Source: Bacillota bacterium (lineage in GTDB: Bacteria; Bacillota; Clostridia; UBA1381). From it: DNA of 64,000 nt. The notes under the pieces were generated by a model, which saw only the letters and a list, made by a program, of their open reading frames with translations, made no database searches and was not told the DNA's origin. A program made the position numbers and the translations under genes. Position 1 is the first letter of the stretch, and every line of letters starts with the position of its first letter. The stretch is from positions 6,115 through 70,114 of the forward strand of contig JAQXIJ010000028.1 of assembly GCA_029007725.1 (NCBI GenBank). Direction: 5' to 3'. Positions 5,403 through 63,689 of this stretch are shown here, one piece after another.

Positions 5403-6758
5403 CTATTTTTCATCTCGCATACTTTTCAAAAATGCAATTCCGAACGGTACGCTCACAAGGGACGAAAAAACGTCTGCGATAGGCTGGGTAAATTCCACAC
5501 CGCCTATTCCGAAAATTCGTGGCAGAATCAGTATTAGAGGAATGAAAAATATTCCTTGGCGCAAACAGGCAAGAAAGGTTGCAGACCACGAGCGCCCGCT
5601 CATTTGAAGCGTCATATTGCAGACTGTGCAGACCGGAACAAAAGGCAGAGCGGCGCACTGCGCCCGAAGTGCAACAGTACCGATTTTTATCACATCCAGG
5701 TCGTCTTTTGTAAATCGGCTTATAATCTGCCGTGCGAATATGAAGGTCGGAAATCCGAGAGCCGCCATTACTGCCGCGCCGAGTACTACCGTAAAATACA
5801 TTGCCGACTTTACGCGCCTGTATTTTTTTGCACCGTAATTGAAACCGACAACAGGCTGCATACCCTGACCGATTCCTATCATAACCGAGAAAATCATCAT
5901 AAAAATTTTGCCGACAATGCCCATTGCGGCAATTGCCGCATCACCATAGCCGCGGACTCCGAGATTAAGAAAAATTGTTGAAATACTTGCAAGCCCCTGC
6001 CGAGCGAAGGACGGAAGCCCGGCTTTTATGATGTTCATGTAGAGCGCGATATTTTTTGACATACAAGTGATTTTAAGCCGCACCATGCTTGTCCCTTTTA
6101 TATAAAAAGAAAGCAGTATAACGAAGCTGATGCACTGGCTGATGAGCGTTGCGATTGCTGCACCTGCGGTACCGAGATTAAACACAAAAATCAGCAGCGG
6201 GTCAAGAGCGATGTTGATTATTCCACCGGCACCTATACCGAGCATGGCAAATTGGGCCTTTCCCTGAGAGCGGAGAATATTGTTCATTATAAATGAGCCT
6301 ATCATGACAGGTGCGCCGATAATTATGAAGCGCGCATAGCGCACGGCGTAGGGAAGAATGGTTTGCGTTGCGCCGAACATCAGCATGATTCTGCCTGTCG
6401 CAAGTGAACCTATGAGCGCAAGAAGGATACCTATTGCAATGCCCGAAAAAAATCCACTTGATGCAACGGTCGTTGCCTCATCGTTTTTCTGCTGACCCAA
6501 AAGTCGCGAAATCATGCTGCCCGAACCCATGCCAAGTGTAAATCCGACCGCCTGAATTATCGCCATAAGCGAAAAAACTATGCTGACCGCGCCTGATGCA
6601 CTTGTACCCAGCCGTGACACGAAAAATGTGTCTGCAGTGTTGTAGACAGCAGTGACAAGCATACTGATTATCGTCGGCACAGACAGCGAAACAATCAGAT
6701 TTGGGATGGCGTTTTCTGTCATTTTTTTGTACTGTGCCACACTACTGCTTGTATTCAT
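5403..6758 (-). CDS. MATE family efflux transporter
   Basis: 451 aa with 12 predicted TM helices. The N-terminus ...IPNLIVSLSVPTIISMLVTAVYNTADTFFVS... is typical of MatE repeats. Confidence 0.85.
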   Translation of the reverse strand: MNTSSSVAQYKKMTENAIPNLIVSLSVPTIISMLVTAVYNTADTFFVSRLGTSASGAVSIVFSLMAIIQAVGFTLGMGSGSMISRLLGQQKNDEATTVASSGFFSGIAIGILLALIGSLATGRIMLMFGATQTILPYAVRYARFIIIGAPVMIGSFIMNNILRSQGKAQFAMLGIGAGGIINIALDPLLIFVFNLGTAGAAIATLISQCISFVILLSFYIKGTSMVRLKITCMSKNIALYMNIIKAGLPSFARQGLASISTIFLNLGVRGYGDAAIAAMGIVGKIFMMIFSVMIGIGQGMQPVVGFNYGAKKYRRVKSAMYFTVVLGAAVMAALGFPTFIFARQIISRFTKDDLDVIKIGTVALRAQCAALPFVPVCTVCNMTLQMSGRSWSATFLACLRQGIFFIPLILILPRIFGIGGVEFTQPIADVFSSLVSVPFGIAFLKSMRDEK

Positions 6759-20215: not shown

Positions 20216-21082
20216 TTAAATTTTTCGAATATCCATATCGTGCGGAACGGGCGCGATTATTTCAATTTTTTCGCTGTTTATAGGGTGGATAAAATTCAGT
20301 TTGCGGCAGTGCAGGAACAGTCGTCTGTTTTCTGCAATGCCGTACAGGCTGTCGCCTAAAATCGGTATTCCTATATGCACCATATGAAGCCTAAGCTGAT
20401 GTGTCCTGCCGGTGCGAGGAACGAGCCGCGCAAGACTCAGTCCGTTCGCTTCGTCAATTATTGTGTAGTCGGAAACCGCCGGTTTTCCGTCCTGGCTTAT
20501 GCAGCGTTTTATGATTCCATTATGTTCACGTCGTATTGGTGCGGAAATTCTGCCGGACTTTTCGTATACCGTTCCGACGCATATAGCAAGATATTCCTTA
20601 TATAGTTCCTTTGCACGAAGCTGTTCCGAAAGGCGGGCGCAGGCGTATGCGTTTTTTGCAATGAGCACCACACCGGACGTTTCACGGTCGAGCCGCGTTA
20701 CGGCACGGAAGGTAAACGGCGCATCCTTATAATAGTAGCAAACCGCATTTGCAAGAGTGCCCTCAAAGTGCCCATGAGATGGATGCGTGGGCATATTGTA
20801 TGGCTTGTTTACCGCCAGAAGATCCTCATCTTCATGCAAAATATCAAGAGGAATATTGTTGGGGACAATGCCTTGTGAGCTGGATTCGGGGAGGATTATG
20901 CTCAGTCTGTCACCGACGCTGACCAATTTGTTCACAAATACTCGTTCACCGTTTAAGAAAATTCCACCGCCATTTTTAAGCCGTGTTATCATTGCGGCGG
21001 AAAAACAAAAATTGGTTTTGAGAATATATTTTATTTCTTTGCCGCAAAGGCTGTCTGTGATGTCAAGTATAAATTGTCGCAT
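20216..21082 (-). CDS. RluA-family 23S rRNA/tRNA pseudouridine synthase with an S4-like N-terminus
   Basis: ...LLAVNKPYNMPTHPS...VTRLDRETSGVVLIAK...GRTHQLRLHM motifs. Confidence 0.9.
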   Translation of the reverse strand: MRQFILDITDSLCGKEIKYILKTNFCFSAAMITRLKNGGGIFLNGERVFVNKLVSVGDRLSIILPESSSQGIVPNNIPLDILHEDEDLLAVNKPYNMPTHPSHGHFEGTLANAVCYYYKDAPFTFRAVTRLDRETSGVVLIAKNAYACARLSEQLRAKELYKEYLAICVGTVYEKSGRISAPIRREHNGIIKRCISQDGKPAVSDYTIIDEANGLSLARLVPRTGRTHQLRLHMVHIGIPILGDSLYGIAENRRLFLHCRKLNFIHPINSEKIEIIAPVPHDMDIRKI

Positions 21083-21170
21083 TTTTTCACCTCATAATAG
21101 TATAATTATACGATAAAATGCCGCAAAGTGCAATATTTTTGATAAAATTGTACAATATTGAAATTTATGC

Positions 21171-21200
21171 TTGACAAATATCGTTCATGGGTGCTATAAT
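21171..21200 (+). promoter_or_regulatory. Sigma-70-type promoter of the aro operon leader
   Basis: TTGACA (21171-21176), 18-nt spacer, TATAAT (21195-21200). Confidence 0.7.
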
Positions 21201-21228
21201 GAAAAAAAATCGAATTTGGAGAAATAAA

Positions 21229-21312
21229 ATGAGAAACTTAAGCAGCACATTTGCATACTTTTATGGCTTTACATATTATTGTAAGGCCTTGTTGTGTTGC
21301 TCTGACAGTTAA
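21229..21312 (+). CDS. Phe/Tyr-rich leader peptide of the aromatic amino-acid operon (27 aa)
   Basis: RBS GGAGA lies 6 nt upstream of the ATG. The peptide is MRNLSSTFAYFYGFTYYCKALLCCSDS. Seven of ten consecutive codons (8-17) are Phe or Tyr. The stop is 19 nt before a terminator hairpin. Confidence 0.7.
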   Translation: MRNLSSTFAYFYGFTYYCKALLCCSDS

Positions 21313-21330
21313 TTCATTTTTGTTTTAACA

Positions 21331-21366
21331 GGACTGCAGTGTAACACACCGCAGTCCATTTTTTAT
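21331..21366 (+). terminator. Attenuator terminator of the aro operon leader
   Basis: GGACUGC-A-GUGU-aac-ACAC-c-GCAGUCC, followed by AUUUUUUAU. It lies 64 nt upstream of the DAHP synthase start. Confidence 0.8.
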
Positions 21367-21429
21367 ATAAAAAATAAGGCATGCCAACTTATTCACAAAG
21401 CGTTTTTAAGAAAGGAAAGGGACAAGAAA

Positions 21430-22437
21430 ATGATACTCGTACTTAAAGAAAATTATGACAAAAAGCAGCTTGAAAATCTTACCTCATGGCTTAAAGAACA
21501 GAACATAGACATTCACCTGAGTCAAGGTAAGCAGACGACAATTCTCGGACTTATCGGTGATACGTCCGCGCTTGATATCGATATGCTGTCAACGCTCGAC
21601 ATTGTTGAAACCGCAAAGAGAATTCAGGAGCCTTACAAAAATGCCAACAGAAAATTCCACCCGGACGACACCGTGATAAGTGTGGGAGATGTAAAAATCG
21701 GCGGCGGAAACTTTGGAATAATTGCAGGACCGTGTTCTGTCGAATCGGAGGAGCAACTCTGCACTATTGCAGAGGATGTAAAGGCTTCGGGTGCAAAAAT
21801 GCTGCGTGGAGGCGCTTTCAAGCCGAGAACATCTCCGTATGCTTTCCAGGGTCTGCGCGAAAAGGGAATTGAGCTTTTGCTGCGAGCAAAAGAAAAAACA
21901 GGACTTCCGATTGTGACAGAAATTATGGATCTTTCACATCTGCCACTGTTCAAGGATGTTGACGTCATTCAGGTTGGAGCAAGAAATATGCAGAATTTTG
22001 AGCTTTTGAAGGAGCTTGGAAAAACAAATAAGCCTATTTTGTTAAAGCGTGGTCTTTCAAGCACTTTGCAGGAGCTGCTGATGAGTGCCGAATACATCAT
22101 GGCGGGCGGAAACAGCAACGTTATACTGTGTGAGCGAGGCATAAGAACCTTTGAAACAGCAACGCGAAATACGCTTGATTTGTCGGCAGTACCGCTTTTA
22201 AGACAAATGACGCATCTGCCTATTATAGTTGACCCCAGCCACGCTACCGGAATTGCAAAGCTGGTAAAGCCTATGGCCGTTGCGGCTACGGCTGCTGGAT
22301 CAGACGGATTGATTATAGAGGTACACAACGATCCACCCCATGCATTGTGCGACGGTGCCCAGTCACTTACTCCGGAGCAGTTTGCAGACCTTAAGAAATC
22401 GGTGGATAATGTGCTGCCGTTTGCATGCAGATCATGA
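21430..22437 (+). CDS. aroF: 3-deoxy-7-phosphoheptulonate (DAHP) synthase, type I-beta, with an N-terminal regulatory domain
   Basis: A ~70-aa ferredoxin-like N-domain followed by the catalytic barrel (GPCSVES...[14 protein letters not shown]...KRG...DPSH). The architecture matches Thermotoga-type DAHPS. Confidence 0.9.
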
Positions 22438-23276
22438 AAATTGCAGTAATAGGACTCGGGCTTATCGGCGGTTCGATTGCAAAGGGCTTTAAAAAATACA
22501 CAGACTATGGTATACTGGGATATGATACGGATGAGACGGTTATGAAAAAAGCGCTCGAAAGCGGTGCGATTGACCGCACTTTGGGCGATGAGCTGGCGGA
22601 GTGCGACATTGTGGTACTTGGGCTCTATCCCGAAACAGCAATTAATGTTATGAAAAAATACGCTCCCATTATCGGAAAAAACACGGTTGTAACCGACTGC
22701 GGCGGTGTGAAGGAAAAGGTTTGCCGCGGAATTTTTCCGATTGCAAGGGAGTACGGCTTTACATTTATCGGAGCGCACCCTATGGCAGGTATAGAACAGT
22801 TCGGGTTTGACTGGTCAAATGCAGATATGTTTAAGGGTGCCTCGCTTATACTTACACCGTTTGATGAAACTCCTGACGAAAAGACGCTGTTTTTGTGGAA
22901 TGCATTTTCAAAAATCGGTTTTTCAAGACTTCAGATGTCAACTCCTGAAGAACATGACAAAATTATCGCATATACATCTCAGCTTGCCCACGTTGTTTCA
23001 AGCAGCTATATAAAAAGCCCAACAGCAATGAATCATACAGGTTTTTCGGCAGGTAGCTTCCGTGATATGACACGTGTTGCACGCCTGAATGAGGATATGT
23101 GGACCGAGCTGTTTTTGGAAAATGCCGGCAATCTTACAAATGAGATTGATTTTGTTGTCGACAAAATGCAGGAATTTTCAGACGCAATAAAGGCAAGGGA
23201 CGCTGAAACTCTGCGAAAGCTTTTGAAGGAAGGCAGAGAAAAAAAGGAGCTGTCTGAAAAGTGCGATATGCAGTGA
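22434..23276 (+). CDS. tyrA: Prephenate dehydrogenase
   Basis: [14 protein letters not shown] Rossmann motif, ...GAHPMAG... and ...[12 protein letters not shown] overlap with the DAHPS stop. Confidence 0.9.
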
Positions 23277-23344
23277 GGTTTAAGTCGTAAAAGTATTTTT
23301 ATGTAGTTAAGTTTTGTTCATTGACACGGAAAGGAATATTTATC

Positions 23345-24403
23345 ATGATGAAAAAAATTCAGGTGCGTGCGTCAACCGAATATGAGGTGCTTATATCGAG
23401 CGGAATTATGGGTGATTCGGGAAAGCTTGTGCGGCAGGTGATAAAGCCATGCCGTGTGATGCTTGTAAGCGATGATAAGGTTTTCGGACTTTACGGCGCC
23501 TGTGTACAAAAGTCGCTAGAAGAAGCCGGATATGAGGTTTCGGTGCATGTTTTCAAAAACGGAGAAAAATCAAAAATCATGCAGGAGTACATAAAGATAC
23601 TCGAAACGGCGGCGGAAAACAGGCTAACAAGAACCGACGCAATGGTGGCACTTGGAGGCGGAGTTGTCGGTGATATGACCGGTTTTGCGGCGGCGACATA
23701 TCTGCGCGGAATAAAATTTGTTCAGCTGCCGACAACATTTTTGGCTGCGGTAGATTCGTCGGTCGGAGGAAAGACGGGCGTTAATCTGAAGCACGGAAAA
23801 AACCTCGCAGGAGCATTTCATCAGCCATCGCTGGTGGTCTGCGATACCGACAGCTTTGCTACTCTAGATGACCGAACTTTTTCCGACGGTGTTGCCGAAA
23901 CGGTTAAGTGCGGAATGATATGTGATGCGGAGCTGTTCGTTAAAATGCACGGCGATTTCAGAAAAAGTATTAGTGATATTACCGCGGAATGCGTGTCGAT
24001 AAAGCGCGATGTAGTCTGTGAGGACGAGTTTGACACCGGAAAGCGGCAGCTTTTGAATTTTGGTCACACAATAGGTCATGCGATAGAGAAATGCAGCAAT
24101 TTTGAAATAACACACGGCCATGCAGTAGCAATAGGAATGGCGGCTGTGACGCGCGCCGCCGAAAAGCTTAATATCTGCGAAAAGGGTACATCGGACGCGC
24201 TTTGCGATACACTAAAAAAATGTTCTCTGCCGACGGAATGTACATTTTCGGCAAAAGAGCTTTACGGCGTGATGCTTGCGGACAAAAAGAGATCCGGCGA
24301 CGTGATTACGATTGTTGTTCCGAAAAAAATAGGCAAATGTGTATTGTATAGAATACCTGTGGTCGAGCTTTTGAATTTTGTTGAAAAAGGACTTGAAAAA
24401 TGA
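23345..24403 (+). CDS. aroB: 3-dehydroquinate synthase
   Basis: ...ALGGGVVGDMTGFAAATYLRGI.FVQLPTTFLAAVDSSVGGKTGVN... and HTIGHAIE...HGHAVAIGM metal-site motifs. Confidence 0.95.
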   Translation: MMKKIQVRASTEYEVLISSGIMGDSGKLVRQVIKPCRVMLVSDDKVFGLYGACVQKSLEEAGYEVSVHVFKNGEKSKIMQEYIKILETAAENRLTRTDAMVALGGGVVGDMTGFAAATYLRGIKFVQLPTTFLAAVDSSVGGKTGVNLKHGKNLAGAFHQPSLVVCDTDSFATLDDRTFSDGVAETVKCGMICDAELFVKMHGDFRKSISDITAECVSIKRDVVCEDEFDTGKRQLLNFGHTIGHAIEKCSNFEITHGHAVAIGMAAVTRAAEKLNICEKGTSDALCDTLKKCSLPTECTFSAKELYGVMLADKKRSGDVITIVVPKKIGKCVLYRIPVVELLNFVEKGLEK

Positions 24404-25599
24404 AGGTTATAATAACTCCGAAAAGGCTTTCAGGTAAGATATCGGCCGTCACGTCTAAGTCGGATGCACACCGTTTGATAATAGCCGCGGCACTTGCCGA
24501 CAAGCCTACAAAGATATTTATGAATAATTTTTCCGAGGATATAAACGCAACAATTGATTGCATAAAGGCTCTCGGAGGCGGATGCGAACCGATAAGCGAC
24601 GGTATAACGGTGTCGCCGATAGGGCAGGCGGCGGAAAACGTGGTGCTGCGTTGCCGTGAAAGCGGCTCTACAGCAAGGTTTATGCTTCCTGTCGCGGCGG
24701 CGGTGTGTAAAAATGCAGAGGTTTGCGGAAGTGCGCGGCTGATTGAGCGACCTTTTGCTGAGCTTACGCGCGTTCTGCGCAGCCATGGTACCGAAATCGA
24801 CCGTGATTTTCTGCCAATAAAGCTACGCGGCGGAATTACCGGAGGCGAGTTTGCGCTTGCTGGCAACATCAGCTCTCAGTATATTACCGGACTTTTGTTC
24901 GCACTGCCGTTGGTTGCGGGCGGCGGAAAAATCTGTCTTACAACGCCGCTGGAATCGGCGGCATATGTGGATATGACATTGGATACGCTTGAAAAATTCG
25001 GTGTTCGGATAAATGTCGGTGACGGTTTTTATGAAGTGGGTCAGCAGAAATATATTTCGCCGGGTGAGATTTTTGCGGATGGTGACTGGTCAAATGCGGC
25101 ATTTTGGATTGCGGCAAATACTATGGGAGCAGCGGTGGAAGTCGGCGGCTTGTCCGAAAGTTCGCATCAGGGTGACAAAAGGATCATCGGACTTTTGCAC
25201 AAAAACGAAATTGACGCATCACAGATCCCAGATCTTGTTCCTATACTTGCGACTGCGGCTGCGGCGAAAAAGGGTAGGACGGTTATAAAAAATGCTGCGC
25301 GGCTGCGGCTGAAGGAAAGCGACAGGTTGACCGCCATGTGCAAAAATCTTAACAGTATAGGAGGAGAAGTCACCGAAACTGCCGATGGATTGGTAATAAA
25401 CGGACATGGATTTCTTTTGGGAGGAGAGGTTTGCGGCTTCAACGACCACAGGATAGTAATGGCTATGGCGATTGCTTCAATTATATGTATGGATAAGCTT
25501 GCGATAAACGGTGCAGAGGCTGTAAAAAAGTCATATCCGGCATTTTTTAATGATTTTAGAAAGCTTGGGGGTGTTTTTGATGTCGTATCAGATAGGTGA
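24400..25599 (+). CDS. aroA: 3-phosphoshikimate 1-carboxyvinyltransferase (EPSP synthase)
   Basis: ...SKSDAHR... and ...ESGSTARF... followed by ...LKESDRL...DHRIVMA motifs. At 399 aa it is somewhat short for the family. Confidence 0.9.
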   Translation: MKVIITPKRLSGKISAVTSKSDAHRLIIAAALADKPTKIFMNNFSEDINATIDCIKALGGGCEPISDGITVSPIGQAAENVVLRCRESGSTARFMLPVAAAVCKNAEVCGSARLIERPFAELTRVLRSHGTEIDRDFLPIKLRGGITGGEFALAGNISSQYITGLLFALPLVAGGGKICLTTPLESAAYVDMTLDTLEKFGVRINVGDGFYEVGQQKYISPGEIFADGDWSNAAFWIAANTMGAAVEVGGLSESSHQGDKRIIGLLHKNEIDASQIPDLVPILATAAAAKKGRTVIKNAARLRLKESDRLTAMCKNLNSIGGEVTETADGLVINGHGFLLGGEVCGFNDHRIVMAMAIASIICMDKLAINGAEAVKKSYPAFFNDFRKLGGVFDVVSDR

Positions 25600-26659
25600 A
25601 AAAATCAGAGTAACAATTTTCGGTCAGTCACATTCCGAAGCAATCGGTGCGGTGATTGACGGCATACCGGCGGGGATACGTCTTGATACGGATAAAATAA
25701 GAGCGCATATGCAAAGGCGCGCGCCGGGCAGGGACAGATTTTCGACGCCGCGCCGCGAGACGGACGAGCCGGAAATAATCTCCGGTCTTTCGGATGGAAT
25801 CACCTGCGGTGCACCGATTTGCGCAGTAATAAAAAACACTAACACTAAAAGCAGCGATTACGAAAGTTTAAAATATCTGCCGCGCCCCGGTCATTCCGAC
25901 TTTGCGGCATTTATGAAATACGGCGGCGCGAACGATATACGCGGCGGAGGGCAGTTTTCGGGCAGAATGACGGCACCGCTTTGTTTCGCAGGTGCGGTGT
26001 GTATGCAGCTGCTTGAAGAAGATGGCATTTTTGTCGGTGCGCATATTGCGAAAATTCACGGCGTGAGTGATGAAGCGTTCGATGCGGCAAATGTGGAAAA
26101 GAATTTGCTTGACGGTCTGAAAAACAAGCCTTTTGCGGTCATTTCGGATGCGCAAGGGGAAAAAATGAAGGCAGAAATTGCGAAGGCAAAAGAAAATCTT
26201 GACTCTGTAGGCGGCGTTATTGAATGTGCAGTTTTGGGTATGCCTCCCGGAATCGGCGGTGCACTGTTTGACGGACTGGAGGGCTGTATTTCAAAGGCGG
26301 TTTTCGGTATTCCGGCGGTGAAGGGAATTGAATTCGGCGCGGGATTTGCAGCGGCAGATATGTACGGCTCGGAAAATAACGACAGCTTTTATTTTGCAGA
26401 GAACGGCAAGGTGAAAACGCGTACGAACAATCACGGAGGAATTCTCGGCGGAATTTCAAGCGGAATGCCACTGATTTTCAGAACAGCGGTGAAACCCACA
26501 CCATCAATAGCGTGCACGCAGAAGACGGTAAACCTTAAGACCGGCACGGAGGAAAAACTTAAAATAACGGGGCGGCATGATCCGTGCATCGTGCATCGTG
26601 CTGTACCGGCGGTCGAATCGGCTGCTGCGATTGCGATTCTTGACAAAATGAGAGGTTGA
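25580..26659 (+). CDS. aroC: Chorismate synthase
   Basis: ...FGQSHSEAIGAVIDG.P...RRAPGR...RPGHSD...GGGQFSGR...GGISSG motifs. The start overlaps the aroA 3' end. Confidence 0.95.
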   Translation: MSYQIGEKIRVTIFGQSHSEAIGAVIDGIPAGIRLDTDKIRAHMQRRAPGRDRFSTPRRETDEPEIISGLSDGITCGAPICAVIKNTNTKSSDYESLKYLPRPGHSDFAAFMKYGGANDIRGGGQFSGRMTAPLCFAGAVCMQLLEEDGIFVGAHIAKIHGVSDEAFDAANVEKNLLDGLKNKPFAVISDAQGEKMKAEIAKAKENLDSVGGVIECAVLGMPPGIGGALFDGLEGCISKAVFGIPAVKGIEFGAGFAAADMYGSENNDSFYFAENGKVKTRTNNHGGILGGISSGMPLIFRTAVKPTPSIACTQKTVNLKTGTEEKLKITGRHDPCIVHRAVPAVESAAAIAILDKMRG

Positions 26660-26664
26660 CAAAT

Positions 26665-27798
26665 ATGGATTTGGAAAATGTAAGAACAGACATAGACAAT
26701 ATAGACGATAAGCTGGTAAAGCTTTTTGTAGAGCGAATGAGCGACGTGCTTGAGGTTGCAAAGTATAAAAAAGAACATAATCTGCCTGTTTATAACGGAC
26801 AGCGCGAACGCGAAATTATAAACAGCCTTACTGCAAAGGTGCCGGAGGAGCTGGCGCTTTATGTAAAGGTACTTTACGGAACTCTGTTTGATGTCAGCAG
26901 GTCATACCAAAGCAAAAAAATCGCAAAATCCTCTAAAATTGTTGAAGACATAAAGACTGCACTTGCGGACACAGACAACAAATTTCCCGATTATGCGGTT
27001 GTTGCATGTCAGGGAACCGAGGGTGCGTATTCGCAGAAAGCTTGCGAGAAACTGTTTTTCAATCCGTCGGTGATGTTTTTCGAAAATTTCAAGGGAGTGT
27101 TTGACGCTGTTGACAGCGGAATGTGCCGGTATGGGGTTCTGCCGCTTGAAAACAGCATCTACGGCACGGTTACCGAGGTTTGTGACTTGATGAACAGATA
27201 TGATTTTTCTATTGTCAAAGCGGCGAAAATTCAGATAAATCACATTCTTGCGACGAAAAGCGGCACGACCGAAATAACAGAGATTTTTTCGCACAGACAG
27301 GCAATCGGGCAGTGCGAAAAGTTTTTGAAAGGTCTTAAGAATGTTAAGATTACCCCGTGCGAAAATACGGCTGTGGCGGCATCTATGGTGGCAAAGTCTG
27401 ACAGAAACGACGTTGCCGCAATTTGCTCTAAGGAGTGTGCATCACTCTACGGTCTCAGTGTGATGAAGGATTCAATTGCCGACAGCGACAACAACTATAC
27501 AAGATTCATCTGCATTTCAAAGAAAAAGGAGATTTATCCTGGTGCGGACAAAATCAGCTTTATGATAACTCTGCCGCACACCGCAGGTTCACTGTATGCA
27601 ACAATTTCAAAGTTTGCAGCTGCGGGGATAAACCTTACAAAAATCGAGAGCCGTCCAATCGCTGGAAGAGACTTTGAGTTTTCGTTTTATTTTGAAATGG
27701 AGGTTTCGGTTTATTCGGATGAGCTTTACGCAATTTTGGCTGAGCTGGAAAACTCGGACGAAAAGTTTAAATTTTACGGATGCTATCTTGAAACATAA
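26665..27798 (+). CDS. pheA: Bifunctional chorismate mutase / prephenate dehydratase (P-protein) with a C-terminal ACT domain
   Basis: AroQ chorismate mutase N-terminus (LENVRTDIDNIDDKLVKLFVERM), a PDT domain (...VACQGTEGAYS...ENS.YG.V...TRF) and an ACT region. A TTG at 26656 is an alternative start. Confidence 0.9.
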   Translation: MDLENVRTDIDNIDDKLVKLFVERMSDVLEVAKYKKEHNLPVYNGQREREIINSLTAKVPEELALYVKVLYGTLFDVSRSYQSKKIAKSSKIVEDIKTALADTDNKFPDYAVVACQGTEGAYSQKACEKLFFNPSVMFFENFKGVFDAVDSGMCRYGVLPLENSIYGTVTEVCDLMNRYDFSIVKAAKIQINHILATKSGTTEITEIFSHRQAIGQCEKFLKGLKNVKITPCENTAVAASMVAKSDRNDVAAICSKECASLYGLSVMKDSIADSDNNYTRFICISKKKEIYPGADKISFMITLPHTAGSLYATISKFAAAGINLTKIESRPIAGRDFEFSFYFEMEVSVYSDELYAILAELENSDEKFKFYGCYLET

Positions 27799-27862: not shown

Positions 27863-28312
27863 ATGGGTATATATGAAGAAAAAGCGTCCGCTCTTTTCAA
27901 AAGCGGATACAACTGTGCACAGGCGGTATTTCTTGCATTTGCGGAAAAAATGAATATTGACAGGGAAACGGCGATAAAGTTGTCATCTTCCTTCGGGGGA
28001 GGAATTGGCAGAATGCGCGAGGTCTGCGGTGCGGTCAGCGGAATGTGTATGGTAATAGGTGTTCTGTACGGCTATTCCGATGTGGATGACGTTACCGCAA
28101 AAAAAGAGCACTATGAGAGAATTCGGAAGCTTGCCGCAGAATTTAAGGCGGAAAACGGCAGCATAATCTGTCGCGAACTTTTGGGAATCAAGACGGCGGA
28201 AAAGTCTGCGGCACCGGAACCGCGCACCGAACAGTATTTTCATTCGCGTCCGTGCGAAAAAATGGTTGCCGATGCGGCAATACTGACAGAGGAATATATA
28301 AATACACACTAA
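27863..28312 (+). CDS. C_GCAxxG_C_C family protein
   Basis: N-terminal ...SGYNCAQAVFLAF... signature with further conserved Cys residues (CGAVSG, CRELL, RPC). Confidence 0.75.
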   Translation: MGIYEEKASALFKSGYNCAQAVFLAFAEKMNIDRETAIKLSSSFGGGIGRMREVCGAVSGMCMVIGVLYGYSDVDDVTAKKEHYERIRKLAAEFKAENGSIICRELLGIKTAEKSAAPEPRTEQYFHSRPCEKMVADAAILTEEYINTH

Positions 28313-28424
28313 GGCGGCAGAATGAATTTTTGCAATAGTTGAACTATTGACGTTTTTAAGAAAATATGTTAAAATATCATGAAATAAACAGCTATTGAGA
28401 TACAGCCTGTAGGAGGAATTATAA

Positions 28425-28997
28425 ATGAGCAGAGTTTCAACAAAAAATCTGGCACTCGCGGCAATACTGACTGCGCTTGTCGTTATACTGCAGTTTCTCG
28501 GAGCTTTTATTAAGCTCGGACCGTTTTCGATTTCAACGGTTTTGATACCCATTGTTGTCGGTTCGGCAATCTGTGGCGTCGGCATAGGTGCGTGGCTTGG
28601 GTTTGTTTTCGGTGTTGTAGTACTTTTGAGCGGCGATGCGGCTGCGTTTTTGGCGGTTAATGTGCCGGGAACTATTATAACGGTGCTTTTAAAGGGTACA
28701 CTATGCGGTCTGGCAGCAGGAGTAGTTTACAGGCTGCTGGCAAAATTCAGCACCTATGCTGCAGTTGCGGCTGCTGCGGTTGTGTGTCCGATTGTAAACA
28801 CGGGCGTGTTTCTTTTGGGATGTCTTTTGTTCTTTATGCCAACAGTAACTGAATGGGCGGCAGCTGCAGGACTGGGTGAAAATGTTGCGCAGTTTATGAT
28901 TGTCGGACTTGTGGGACTTAATTTTCTTGTTGAAATGGGAATAAATATCGTTTTAAGTCCTATTATCGTAAGACTGCTTAATGCAAGAAATAAATAA
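28425..28997 (+). CDS. ECF transporter S component (substrate unknown)
   Basis: 190-aa, 6-TM protein. N-terminus ...TKNLALAAILTALVVILQF.... It lies just upstream of the ecfA1A2T module. RBS AGGAGG. Promoter TTGACG-17-TAAAAT lies upstream. No riboswitch-sized leader is present. Confidence 0.7.
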   Translation: MSRVSTKNLALAAILTALVVILQFLGAFIKLGPFSISTVLIPIVVGSAICGVGIGAWLGFVFGVVVLLSGDAAAFLAVNVPGTIITVLLKGTLCGLAAGVVYRLLAKFSTYAAVAAAAVVCPIVNTGVFLLGCLLFFMPTVTEWAAAAGLGENVAQFMIVGLVGLNFLVEMGINIVLSPIIVRLLNARNK

Positions 28998-50207: not shown

Positions 50208-50294
50208 GCCGATGTGGTGGAATTGGCAGACGCGCGGGACTCAAAATCCCGTGGTAGCGATACCGTGTGGGTTCGACCCCCACCATCGGCACCA
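50208..50294 (+). tRNA. tRNA-Leu (anticodon CAA), class II, with encoded CCA
   Basis: Acceptor stem GCCGATG/CATCGGC, D-loop AATTGGCAGA, anticodon stem CGGGA/TCCCG with loop CUCAAAA, long variable arm, T-arm GTGGG-TTCGACC-CCCAC, then A-CCA. Confidence 0.95.
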
Positions 50295-50304
50295 GACGTA
50301 TTTT

Positions 50305-50345
50305 CCGCATAAATGCTTGAAATTGTAGTGTTTATGCGGTTTTTC
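50305..50345 (+). terminator. Rho-independent terminator after tRNA-Leu
   Basis: CCGCATAAA / TTTATGCGG stem followed by TTTTT. Confidence 0.75.
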
Positions 50346-50504
50346 TTTACTTTTTATGTTTGTTGTTTTGCAGCATTTTAAAGCGTTTTAATATGTTTTT
50401 GTTGTCAAACTGTTGTCACCAAAAAAGCAGATAGATTCAAACGAATCCCACTGCCTTTATTCTTATTTTTTTCGAAAATACAATACCATGTCTTATAGTT
50501 TGTG

Positions 50505-63454: not shown

Positions 63455-63689
63455 CGACGAATGTTAGAGGTGCGGTATTTATAAGTAGGACGCTTCGACT
63501 GTAGGCAAAGGGGGCGCGCCGAAAGGAAACACCGCCGAAATATACAGCTTTGTTGCCTTGGGGCTGTATATTGGGCTGCAGCATAACATGCTGCGGACTG
63601 TCACACTTGTGAAGCGCTAACCGTAGTTTTAAGTATTTGAGTTTGTTTATTAAACCGTGTACGTAGACTATCAGCGTTCACGGTTTTTT
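63455..63689 (+). ncRNA. Lysine riboswitch (L-box) with a terminator expression platform
   Basis: Conserved blocks AGAGGUGCG, AAGUAGG, AAAGGGGGCGCGCCGAAAGG and GGACUGUCA in the order seen in B. subtilis lysC. P1 pairs GUUAG with CUAAC. The terminator AACCGUG...CACGGUU plus U6 lies at 63653-63689. Confidence 0.85.

Follow-up and report, generated by a model that had tools for sequence, protein, structure and literature searches.

The locus described here raises the question of how a bacterium of the class Clostridia (Bacillota; GTDB UBA1381) controls a candidate operon for the synthesis of both phenylalanine (Phe) and tyrosine (Tyr), DAHP synthase-tyrA-aroB-aroA-aroC-pheA. The operon lies on contig JAQXIJ010000028.1 (GenBank assembly GCA_029007725.1), from which a window of 64,000 nucleotides (nt), positions 6,115 to 70,114 of the forward strand, was analyzed; all coordinates below are those of the window. 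A gap of 347 nt separates the DAHP synthase gene from a divergent pseudouridine synthase gene (20216-21082, minus strand). In this gap, the original prediction, which was made from the sequence alone, had placed a ribosome-mediated attenuator composed of a promoter, a Shine-Dalgarno (SD) sequence, a 27-codon open reading frame (ORF) with a run of Phe and Tyr codons, and a terminator ending in U6. All of these elements, as well as the aro operon itself (genes identified with Pfam), were present where they had been described, and the attenuator reading was supported by the conservation of the ORF, by insertions and deletions in steps of three and by covarying alternative helices. We put at roughly 85% the probability that this leader is a classical ribosome-mediated (leader-peptide) transcription attenuator sensing charged tRNA-Phe and tRNA-Tyr.

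The window leader displays every computationally testable hallmark of a classical leader-peptide attenuator, and it belongs to no curated sequence family. A short ORF with its own ribosome-binding site (RBS) and start codon lies in the 5' leader, and seven Phe/Tyr codons are clustered within its codons 8-17, ahead of an operon that carries both tyrA and pheA. A terminator stands between this ORF and the first structural gene, and it is mutually exclusive with an antiterminator with which it shares positions 21332-21346. The helix that competes with the antiterminator (the anti-antiterminator) has its 5' strand under a ribosome stalled at the regulatory codons. The promoter matches both consensus hexamers at 12 of 12 positions with the extended TG present, ranking as the top promoter-like site in the 11 kb scanned, and its position would set the start of transcription near 21207. 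The terminator (-15.6 kcal/mol, z -5.3) follows the leader stop codon after a U-rich spacer, which measures 18 nt and not the 19 nt first given, a trivial slip. A longer in-frame ORF of 41 residues, starting at ATG 21187, was also considered and rejected because its start falls inside the promoter, upstream of the -10 box.

Folding of the whole leader (z -5.5) yielded a rod of three helices, P0, P1 and P2, followed by the terminator, an architecture that recurs in relatives. With the terminator 3' arm left out, the region 21290-21346 had as its minimum-energy fold a hairpin pairing 21295-21310 with 21332-21346 (-13.7 kcal/mol). This is the antiterminator of the original prediction, in which the 3' end of the ORF pairs with the 5' half and loop of the terminator; it was recovered in a slightly different register and is conserved among relatives, with compensatory changes. 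The features of the leader and of the operon are collected in Table 1.

Table 1. Coordinates of the predicted leader elements and of the downstream genes in the window
Feature	Positions	Strand	Details
Sigma-70-type promoter	21171-21200	+	-35 TTGACA 21171-21176; 18-nt spacer; extended -10 TGcTATAAT 21192-21200
P0 5' strand, SD/AUG region	21214-21232	+	Minimum-energy fold; pairs with 21313-21330
SD sequence GGAGA of the leader ORF	21218-21222	+	6 nt ahead of ATG
Leader ORF, 27 codons plus TAA	21229-21312	+	ATG 21229, TAA 21310-21312; peptide MRNLSSTFAYFYGFTYYCKALLCCSDS
Segment 1, P1 5' strand (predicted anti-antiterminator), AGCAGCACA	21241-21249	+	Codons 5-7, abuts 5' end of the Phe/Tyr run; pairs with 21295-21303
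Regulatory codon run F-A-Y-F-Y-G-F-T-Y-Y	21250-21279	+	Codons 8-17; 3 Phe, 4 Tyr, no Trp
Hairpin P2 inside the run, GGCUUUACA / UGUAAGGCC	21265-21288	+	9 bp, U-rich tract after
Segment 2	21295-21310	+	P1 3' strand (21295-21303) and antiterminator 5' strand (21295-21310); last five sense codons and first stop-codon base
U-rich spacer, P0 3' strand	21313-21330	+	Minimum-energy fold
Intrinsic terminator hairpin GGACUGCAGUGU-AAC-ACACCGCAGUCC (segments 3 and 4)	21331-21357	+	5' arm 21331-21342, loop 21343-21345, 3' arm 21346-21357
T6 tract of the terminator	21359-21364	+	Preceded by A after the hairpin
DAHP synthase with FXD domain	21430-22437	+	Pfam
tyrA, prephenate dehydrogenase	22425-23276	+	Pfam
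aroB, 3-dehydroquinate (DHQ) synthase	23321-24403	+	Pfam
aroA, EPSP synthase	24400-25599	+	Pfam
aroC, chorismate synthase	25550-26659	+	Pfam
pheA, chorismate mutase (CM)-prephenate dehydratase	26656-27798	+	Pfam
Candidate regulated operon, DAHP synthase to pheA	21430-27798	+	Pfam

The comparison set comprised the best 80 DAHP synthase loci, each from a species-representative genome, of which 77 were usable. Small ORFs were sought in the 300 nt 5' of each DAHP synthase gene, with a threshold of at least 6 Phe/Tyr residues in a window of 10. Such an ORF was found on the forward strand in 64 of the 77 species genomes, as against 1/77 on the reverse strand and 10/385 dinucleotide shuffles, and a density of 7 in 10 was reached in just 1 of the 385 shuffles; the leader arrangement exceeds chance. 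The 70 loci that carry such an ORF invariably show a hairpin downstream of it. A strict rule recognized it in 67 of them, where a strong hairpin with a U-run (-10 to -27 kcal/mol) was located 13-62 nt past the leader stop, and the other three have equivalent hairpins with a slightly offset U-run that were recognized by eye. The clearly leaderless loci, several of them from other phyla, lack the ORF-terminator pair. The comparison with relatives that had been proposed originally thus came out in favor of the attenuator: the small ORF, its aromatic run and the hairpin recur together, the stems carry compensatory changes, and the contrary pattern, a hairpin kept without a conserved ORF, did not appear.

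The closest relatives of the window DAHP synthase (65-77% identity) belong to uncultured and cultured Clostridia, chiefly Oscillospiraceae and neighbors, and the gene order DAHPS-tyrA-aroB-aroA is kept in most of the related loci. Oscillibacter valericigenes Sjm18-20, Angelakisella massiliensis and Hominicoprocola fusiformis are candidate carriers of the leader that exist in culture. Identical copies of the protein occur in gut metagenome assemblies, pig gut among them. A metagenome scan with the conserved core motif of the leader returned 17 matches, 14 genuine and 3 due to chance, the latter having no leader features. Twelve of the genuine matches lie directly 5' of a gene for DAHP synthase, and the remaining two come from truncated contigs; the 17 matches indicated no other target genes that would point to a wider regulon.

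The next line of evidence concerns translation. Thirty leaders were aligned with MAFFT without being fitted to any structure, and in this alignment the leader start codon is among the few columns that are invariant or nearly so. Of 67 leaders, 65 begin with ATG and 55 have an SD core. The lengths of gap runs are divisible by three in 68 of 78 cases within the coding part, compared with 35 of 105 in the non-coding spacer, and the distance from segment 1 to P2 is 19, 22, 25 or 28 nt in 28 of the 30 sequences. Taken together, the invariant start codon, the 3-nt indels and the spacing stepped by 3 nt indicate, from sequence comparison, that the leader ORF is under coding constraint rather than being a by-product of U-rich RNA. 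Synonymous variants (TTT/TTC and TAT/TAC) are also present among the leaders.

The helices were evaluated on the same alignment against slid controls, in which the pairing partners were displaced by 1-3 columns. For P1, P2 and the terminator together, 83% of the cells were paired (38-51% in the slid controls), with 139 cells showing double changes (34-47) and a covariation score of 0.47 (about 0.1). The terminator helix was 97% paired, with compensatory changes in 8 of its 10 pairs. Of the RNA elements in this family P2 is the best conserved, being 83% paired with 7 of 11 pairs changed on both sides; in relatives its strands are AGCUUUACC/GGUAAGGCU, read as 'SFT' and 'GKA'. P1 is formed in the window by AGCAGCACA with UGUGUUGCU, and in many relatives by GCAGCUGAAU (read as 'AAE') and UUUGGCUG. 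The antiterminator, an alternative to these helices, was itself 73% paired, compared with 27-48% in the slid controls, and reached a covariation score of 0.25 against 0.03-0.09. Lineage-specific variants of it compensate each other, as in GUUUUGCUGC:GCAGUGAAAC, GAUUUGUGC:GCACAAAUC and GGUUUGGCUG:CAGCCAAACC.

These results were extended with an alignment-free swap test, in which each strand was paired with its own partner and with the partners of other loci. Cognate pairs were 3.6-4.6 kcal/mol more stable than swapped ones, with z -11.6 for the antiterminator, z -12.4 for P1 and z -10.5 for P0 (63 loci). When the region 3' of the stalled ribosome was paired with the 5' arm and loop of the terminator, the best duplexes of 67 loci averaged -14.7 kcal/mol, versus -10.9 kcal/mol in shuffles (mean z -1.7), and z was below -1 in 72% of the loci. 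In the leader-only folds of the same 67 loci, 66% of the antiterminator bases of segment 2 pair with sequence that the stalled ribosome would mask. P0 overlaps the SD/AUG region in 58 of the 63 loci, and we propose that it sequesters the leader RBS in the closed form. It may also restrict translation of the leader to the first ribosome. All five helices (P0, P1, P2, the terminator and the antiterminator) show covariation or a preference for their cognate partner.

A rod this strongly structured, with covarying helices, would also suit an untranslated RNA (a riboswitch, or an element that binds a protein or a tRNA) controlling the terminator directly, the small ORF being incidental; moreover, P2 is conserved at the nucleotide level, and RNA pairing explains part of the peptide conservation (FAAEY..GKA). 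We nevertheless consider such an RNA very improbable. The start codon is invariant, and the SD sequence and reading frame are kept across peptides of 14-47 residues whose indels come in threes, while the Phe/Tyr enrichment is specific to strand and frame, and lies far over the shuffles; synonymous codon variants occur as well. Rfam gave no match, T-boxes included, and conserved internal loops or junctions, which ligand pockets need, are missing from the rod.

If the ORF is translated, the nature of the signal has to be considered. The leader peptides span 14-47 residues and are very diverse outside the aromatic run, as exemplified by MFAAEYFYTYFTFFSGKVDFAALR, MKLNGFYFYGYYFFEPIS and MSTFTFAAEYRYFSFTYYFGKAYFGLAENECV. 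The composition of 67 leaders is 18% Phe and 15% Tyr (33% together) with 0.2% Trp, whereas the two residues make up 4% of the adjacent DAHP synthases. This bears on the possibility that a nascent aromatic peptide arrests the ribosome on a free ligand, as TnaC does, or in response to general translation stress. One subgroup has the recurrent motifs FAAEYFYF..FGKA..GLAEN, and the known ribosome-mediated attenuators of Firmicutes mostly sense drugs by means of arrest peptides. The peptides, however, are not conserved family-wide outside the Phe/Tyr run (compare MKLNGFYFYGYYFFEPIS with MSTFTFAAEYRYFSFTYYFGKAYFGLAENECV), the conserved flanking residues coincide with helix strands, and all that the leaders universally share is a dense set of codons for the two end products of the pathway. 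Peptide arrest is therefore a highly unlikely basis for the control, and the shortage of charged tRNA-Phe or tRNA-Tyr is preferred as the signal.

The Phe codons of the leaders are biased toward TTT (261 TTT to 62 TTC), whereas the adjacent DAHP synthase genes favor TTC (272 to 350); the Tyr codons show no comparable shift relative to the DAHP synthase genes. The TTT bias is explained in part by the pairing of UUU with AAG in hairpin P2, and it could possibly also tune the sensitivity of stalling.

Two variations on the leader were seen among the loci. In three of them (L010, L041 and L071), the leaders are dominated by Tyr and have YYYVL in common (MLMARYAYYYVLYGKCRA, MSSSRFGYYYYYVLCSLCRA and MHRHFGFYYYVLFM); they are found about 80-170 nt 5' of the match to DAHP synthase, and no tyrA or aroB follows the DAHP synthase gene in the available sequence; these may be a Tyr-specific variant controlling a stand-alone isozyme. 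L079, on a contig labelled Alloprevotella, has a weaker candidate leader, MFRYFFTRTIS (4 Phe/Tyr), ahead of a good terminator formed by GGCGGCACAGATTACACTGTGCCGCT and T5; the two lie about 135-25 nt 5' of the match to DAHP synthase. This leader may be a short variant of the Clostridia aro leader family, or the contig may be mis-binned.

Based on these elements, the attenuator would operate as follows. Transcription would begin near 21207, and the nascent leader could fold as the rod of P0, P1 and P2 and then as the terminator with its U6. When Phe or Tyr is scarce, the ribosome would stall within the interleaved codon run and mask segment 1 and the 5' strand of P2; since segment 1 abuts the regulatory codons, a ribosome awaiting Phe-tRNA or Tyr-tRNA should cover it. 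Segment 2 would thereby be left free and, while the 3' arm of the terminator is yet to be transcribed, would pair with the 5' arm and loop (21332-21346), so that the antiterminator would block the terminator and RNA polymerase would read into the operon. When both amino acids are plentiful, the ribosome would reach the stop codon and cover segment 2, which in the window consists of the final five codons plus the first stop-codon base, and would then be released, allowing the terminator to form. In the variants with short peptides, the ribosome would be released at the stop and P1 would re-form. In the absence of translation, P0, P1 and P2 would form and transcription would terminate. Because the Phe and Tyr codons alternate, the shortage of either amino acid should suffice for read-through (an OR gate), an input that fits an operon making both through tyrA and pheA. 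P2 may act in this scheme as a transcription pause hairpin. P2 and its U-rich tract (21265-21297) were flagged as terminator-like by the consensus scan, and the consensus of the relatives after P2 is GGCUUnUUU.

Several observations weigh against this mechanism. Equilibrium folds of the full leader keep the terminator under every ribosome mask. In the window, the energies are -13.7 kcal/mol for the antiterminator and -15.6 kcal/mol for the terminator. Antitermination would therefore have to be kinetic, as in the trp operon of Escherichia coli, and since equilibrium folding is unable to demonstrate the switch, the duplex, shuffle, cognate-swap and covariation tests described above were used. 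In the window itself, the antiterminator taken alone is unexceptional (z -1.1, with 35 of 200 shuffles folding as well; duplex z -2.2), and in 28% of the loci the z of the antiterminator duplex lies above -1. P1 is the weakest helix of the alignment, with 65% paired, and 12 of the 67 leaders are without a clear SD core. In about 40% of the loci, those with short peptides, segment 2 lies past the stop codon, and its cover by a terminating ribosome is therefore not universal. Finally, the RNA polymerase of Bacillus subtilis is said, in the 2020 Nature paper of Johnson et al., to outrun the ribosome, which would oppose the mechanism unless a pause synchronizes the two. Such a pause, keeping polymerase and ribosome together, is only hinted at here: the NusG-type pause motif TTNTTT follows P2 in 20 of 67 loci, about two-fold over the 14% found in shuffles, and it is absent from the window.

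We then compared the leader with curated families. A cmscan of 20900-21700 against Rfam, with E up to 10, gave chance matches to unrelated families only, and at the gathering threshold a search of the whole window together with 12 related loci gave no leader family, T-box or other leader riboswitch; its only matches were a lysine riboswitch and a tRNA located elsewhere. The T-box model (RF00230) matched neither the leader with E up to 10 nor, at the gathering threshold, any part of the window or of the related loci, leaderless ones included. The lack of any Rfam match at E up to 10 therefore rules out both a T-box and the curated leaders of the Phe, leu/phe, His, Trp and Thr types. The leader peptides likewise produced no matches to protein families at E up to 10 (10 peptides against NCBIfam and 5 against Pfam). 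Where gene-called in public records, the leader ORFs are unnamed or 'hypothetical'. That gene callers predict them and that records label them hypothetical proteins would accord with a hydrophobic micro-protein with a function of its own, next to a constitutive or leaky terminator or insulator, but this is the least credible of the alternatives, since the ORF always lies between promoter and terminator directly 5' of DAHP synthase, segment 2 is complementary to both segment 1 and the terminator arm in a cognate-specific manner that a plain terminator does not need, and the peptide sequence is unconstrained save for its Phe/Tyr content. The accessible literature contained no description of a Clostridia aro leader, although coverage of subscription papers was limited and an earlier description is possible.

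The tRNA-sensing attenuator favored here has several known counterparts. The pheL-pheA and pheM-pheST leaders of E. coli (Rfam Phe_leader) and the leu/phe leader of Lactococcus use the same attenuation mechanism: their peptide is rich in Phe, the hairpins 1:2, 2:3 and 3:4 are mutually exclusive, and the terminator is intrinsic. The leader of L. lactis is itself a case of leader-peptide attenuation in Firmicutes. In all these leaders the codons are those of Phe alone, and what is controlled is a terminal-branch enzyme or a tRNA synthetase, not DAHP synthase; in addition, they have no detectable similarity to the window leader (no Rfam match, E up to 10). In thrL (Thr/Ile) and ilvL (Leu/Val/Ile) of E. 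coli, the codons are interleaved and the shortage of any one amino acid relieves termination; both resemble the window leader in their multivalent input but differ in pathway and phylum and are not homologous to it. The aromatic T-box leaders of Firmicutes occupy the same position, have the same terminator/antiterminator output and sense tRNA charging, whereas a T-box binds uncharged tRNA directly, without translation.

One functional precedent is aroR, upstream of aroF in Corynebacterium glutamicum, an attenuator that has been experimentally tested (Neshat et al. 2014, as summarized in PMC11802643). As described in that summary, it is likewise a leader with Phe and Tyr codons ahead of an operon that begins with DAHP synthase, in which ribosome stalling raises transcription; it responds to Phe limitation and reportedly not to Tyr. 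It differs in belonging to Actinobacteria, in having a three-codon F-Y-F motif compared with the 6-9 aromatic codons of the Clostridia leaders, and in that its operon does not take in the entire common pathway together with tyrA and pheA; the likeness is one of description only. A second, predicted case is the uORFC-13-1 motif (Brewer et al. 2021, PMC8632094), known from 24 sequences of Acholeplasma and unassigned environmental DNA. It, too, is an upstream ORF, with promoter, RBS, start codon and a Phe-coding U run, that adjoins a terminator and occurs exclusively before aroF, and it has an extra conserved helix. It is limited to Acholeplasma and environmental sequences, and the paper ascribes to it 'at least one' Phe codon, with Tyr unmentioned; here as well, the comparison with the Clostridia family is by description only.

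The original prediction had also held that such an attenuator would be unusual in Firmicutes, which proved overstated, given that His leaders and drug-sensing leaders are known there, that C. glutamicum aroR is a mixed Phe/Tyr precedent and that a predicted one exists in Acholeplasma. His-leader attenuators have been described in a few Firmicutes lineages (PMC9413887). In B. subtilis, tlrB/yxjB is a ribosome-mediated attenuator of an antibiotic-resistance gene (PMC6851288), and bmrCD and vmlR are reported to be further examples. In these drug attenuators, a ribosome stalled on the leader ORF likewise prevents the terminator from forming, and polymerase pausing synchronizes both machines (PMC6851288); the stall, however, is induced by a drug at an arrest motif and not by a shortage of charged tRNA.

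The remainder of the window contains further features in the neighborhood of the operon and beyond. Genes for a C_GCAxxG_C_C putative redox protein and an ECF-transporter S component lie 3' of pheA (27863-28997, plus strand), and a separate, TG-extended promoter-like site, TTGACG/TAAAAT, is located at 28347-28375. The lysine riboswitch aptamer (Rfam RF00168, 96 bits) occupies 63457-63627 (plus strand). A tRNA gene at 50208-50291 (plus strand) is followed, 22 nt on, by a Phe-rich ORF of 22 codons (50313-50381, plus strand), MLEIVVFMRFFFTFYVCCFAAF, with 6 Phe/Tyr in 10 residues, which is probably a chance ORF. A scan of the window for other leader-type ORFs, rich in W, H, L, ILV, T, C, M, R or K, found none that was convincing.

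With functional precedents in two other phyla, the mechanism is not conceptually new. What the family itself may represent is a broader matter, and we hold it about evenly balanced whether these leaders form a large, uncurated and apparently undescribed 'aro leader' family through which gut Oscillospiraceae, Ruminococcaceae-type, Christensenellales-type and related Clostridia mainly control the common aromatic pathway, a family seen in at least 64 species genomes. Firmicutes are thought to favor T-boxes, and in the model organism of the phylum transcription runs ahead of translation. If the proposal is true, classical translation-coupled attenuation of an amino-acid operon would be widespread in a Firmicutes class, and P0, the placement of P2 inside the codon run and the strong UUU bias may serve as adaptations by which polymerase and ribosome stay synchronized. 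The points of interest are the broad distribution in gut Clostridia, the clean either-Phe-or-Tyr input and the predicted use of classical attenuation for a biosynthetic operon in a Firmicutes class.

For the organisms concerned, the leader offers a probable and widespread answer to how the shikimate/Phe/Tyr pathway is controlled in many abundant gut Clostridia, and with it a well-supported family joins the small number of leader-peptide attenuators of amino-acid operons so far known from Firmicutes. The leader also provides a natural test of transcription-translation coordination in Clostridia. Genome annotation could name these small ORFs, and metatranscriptomic read-through at the leader terminator could report Phe/Tyr limitation in situ in gut communities.

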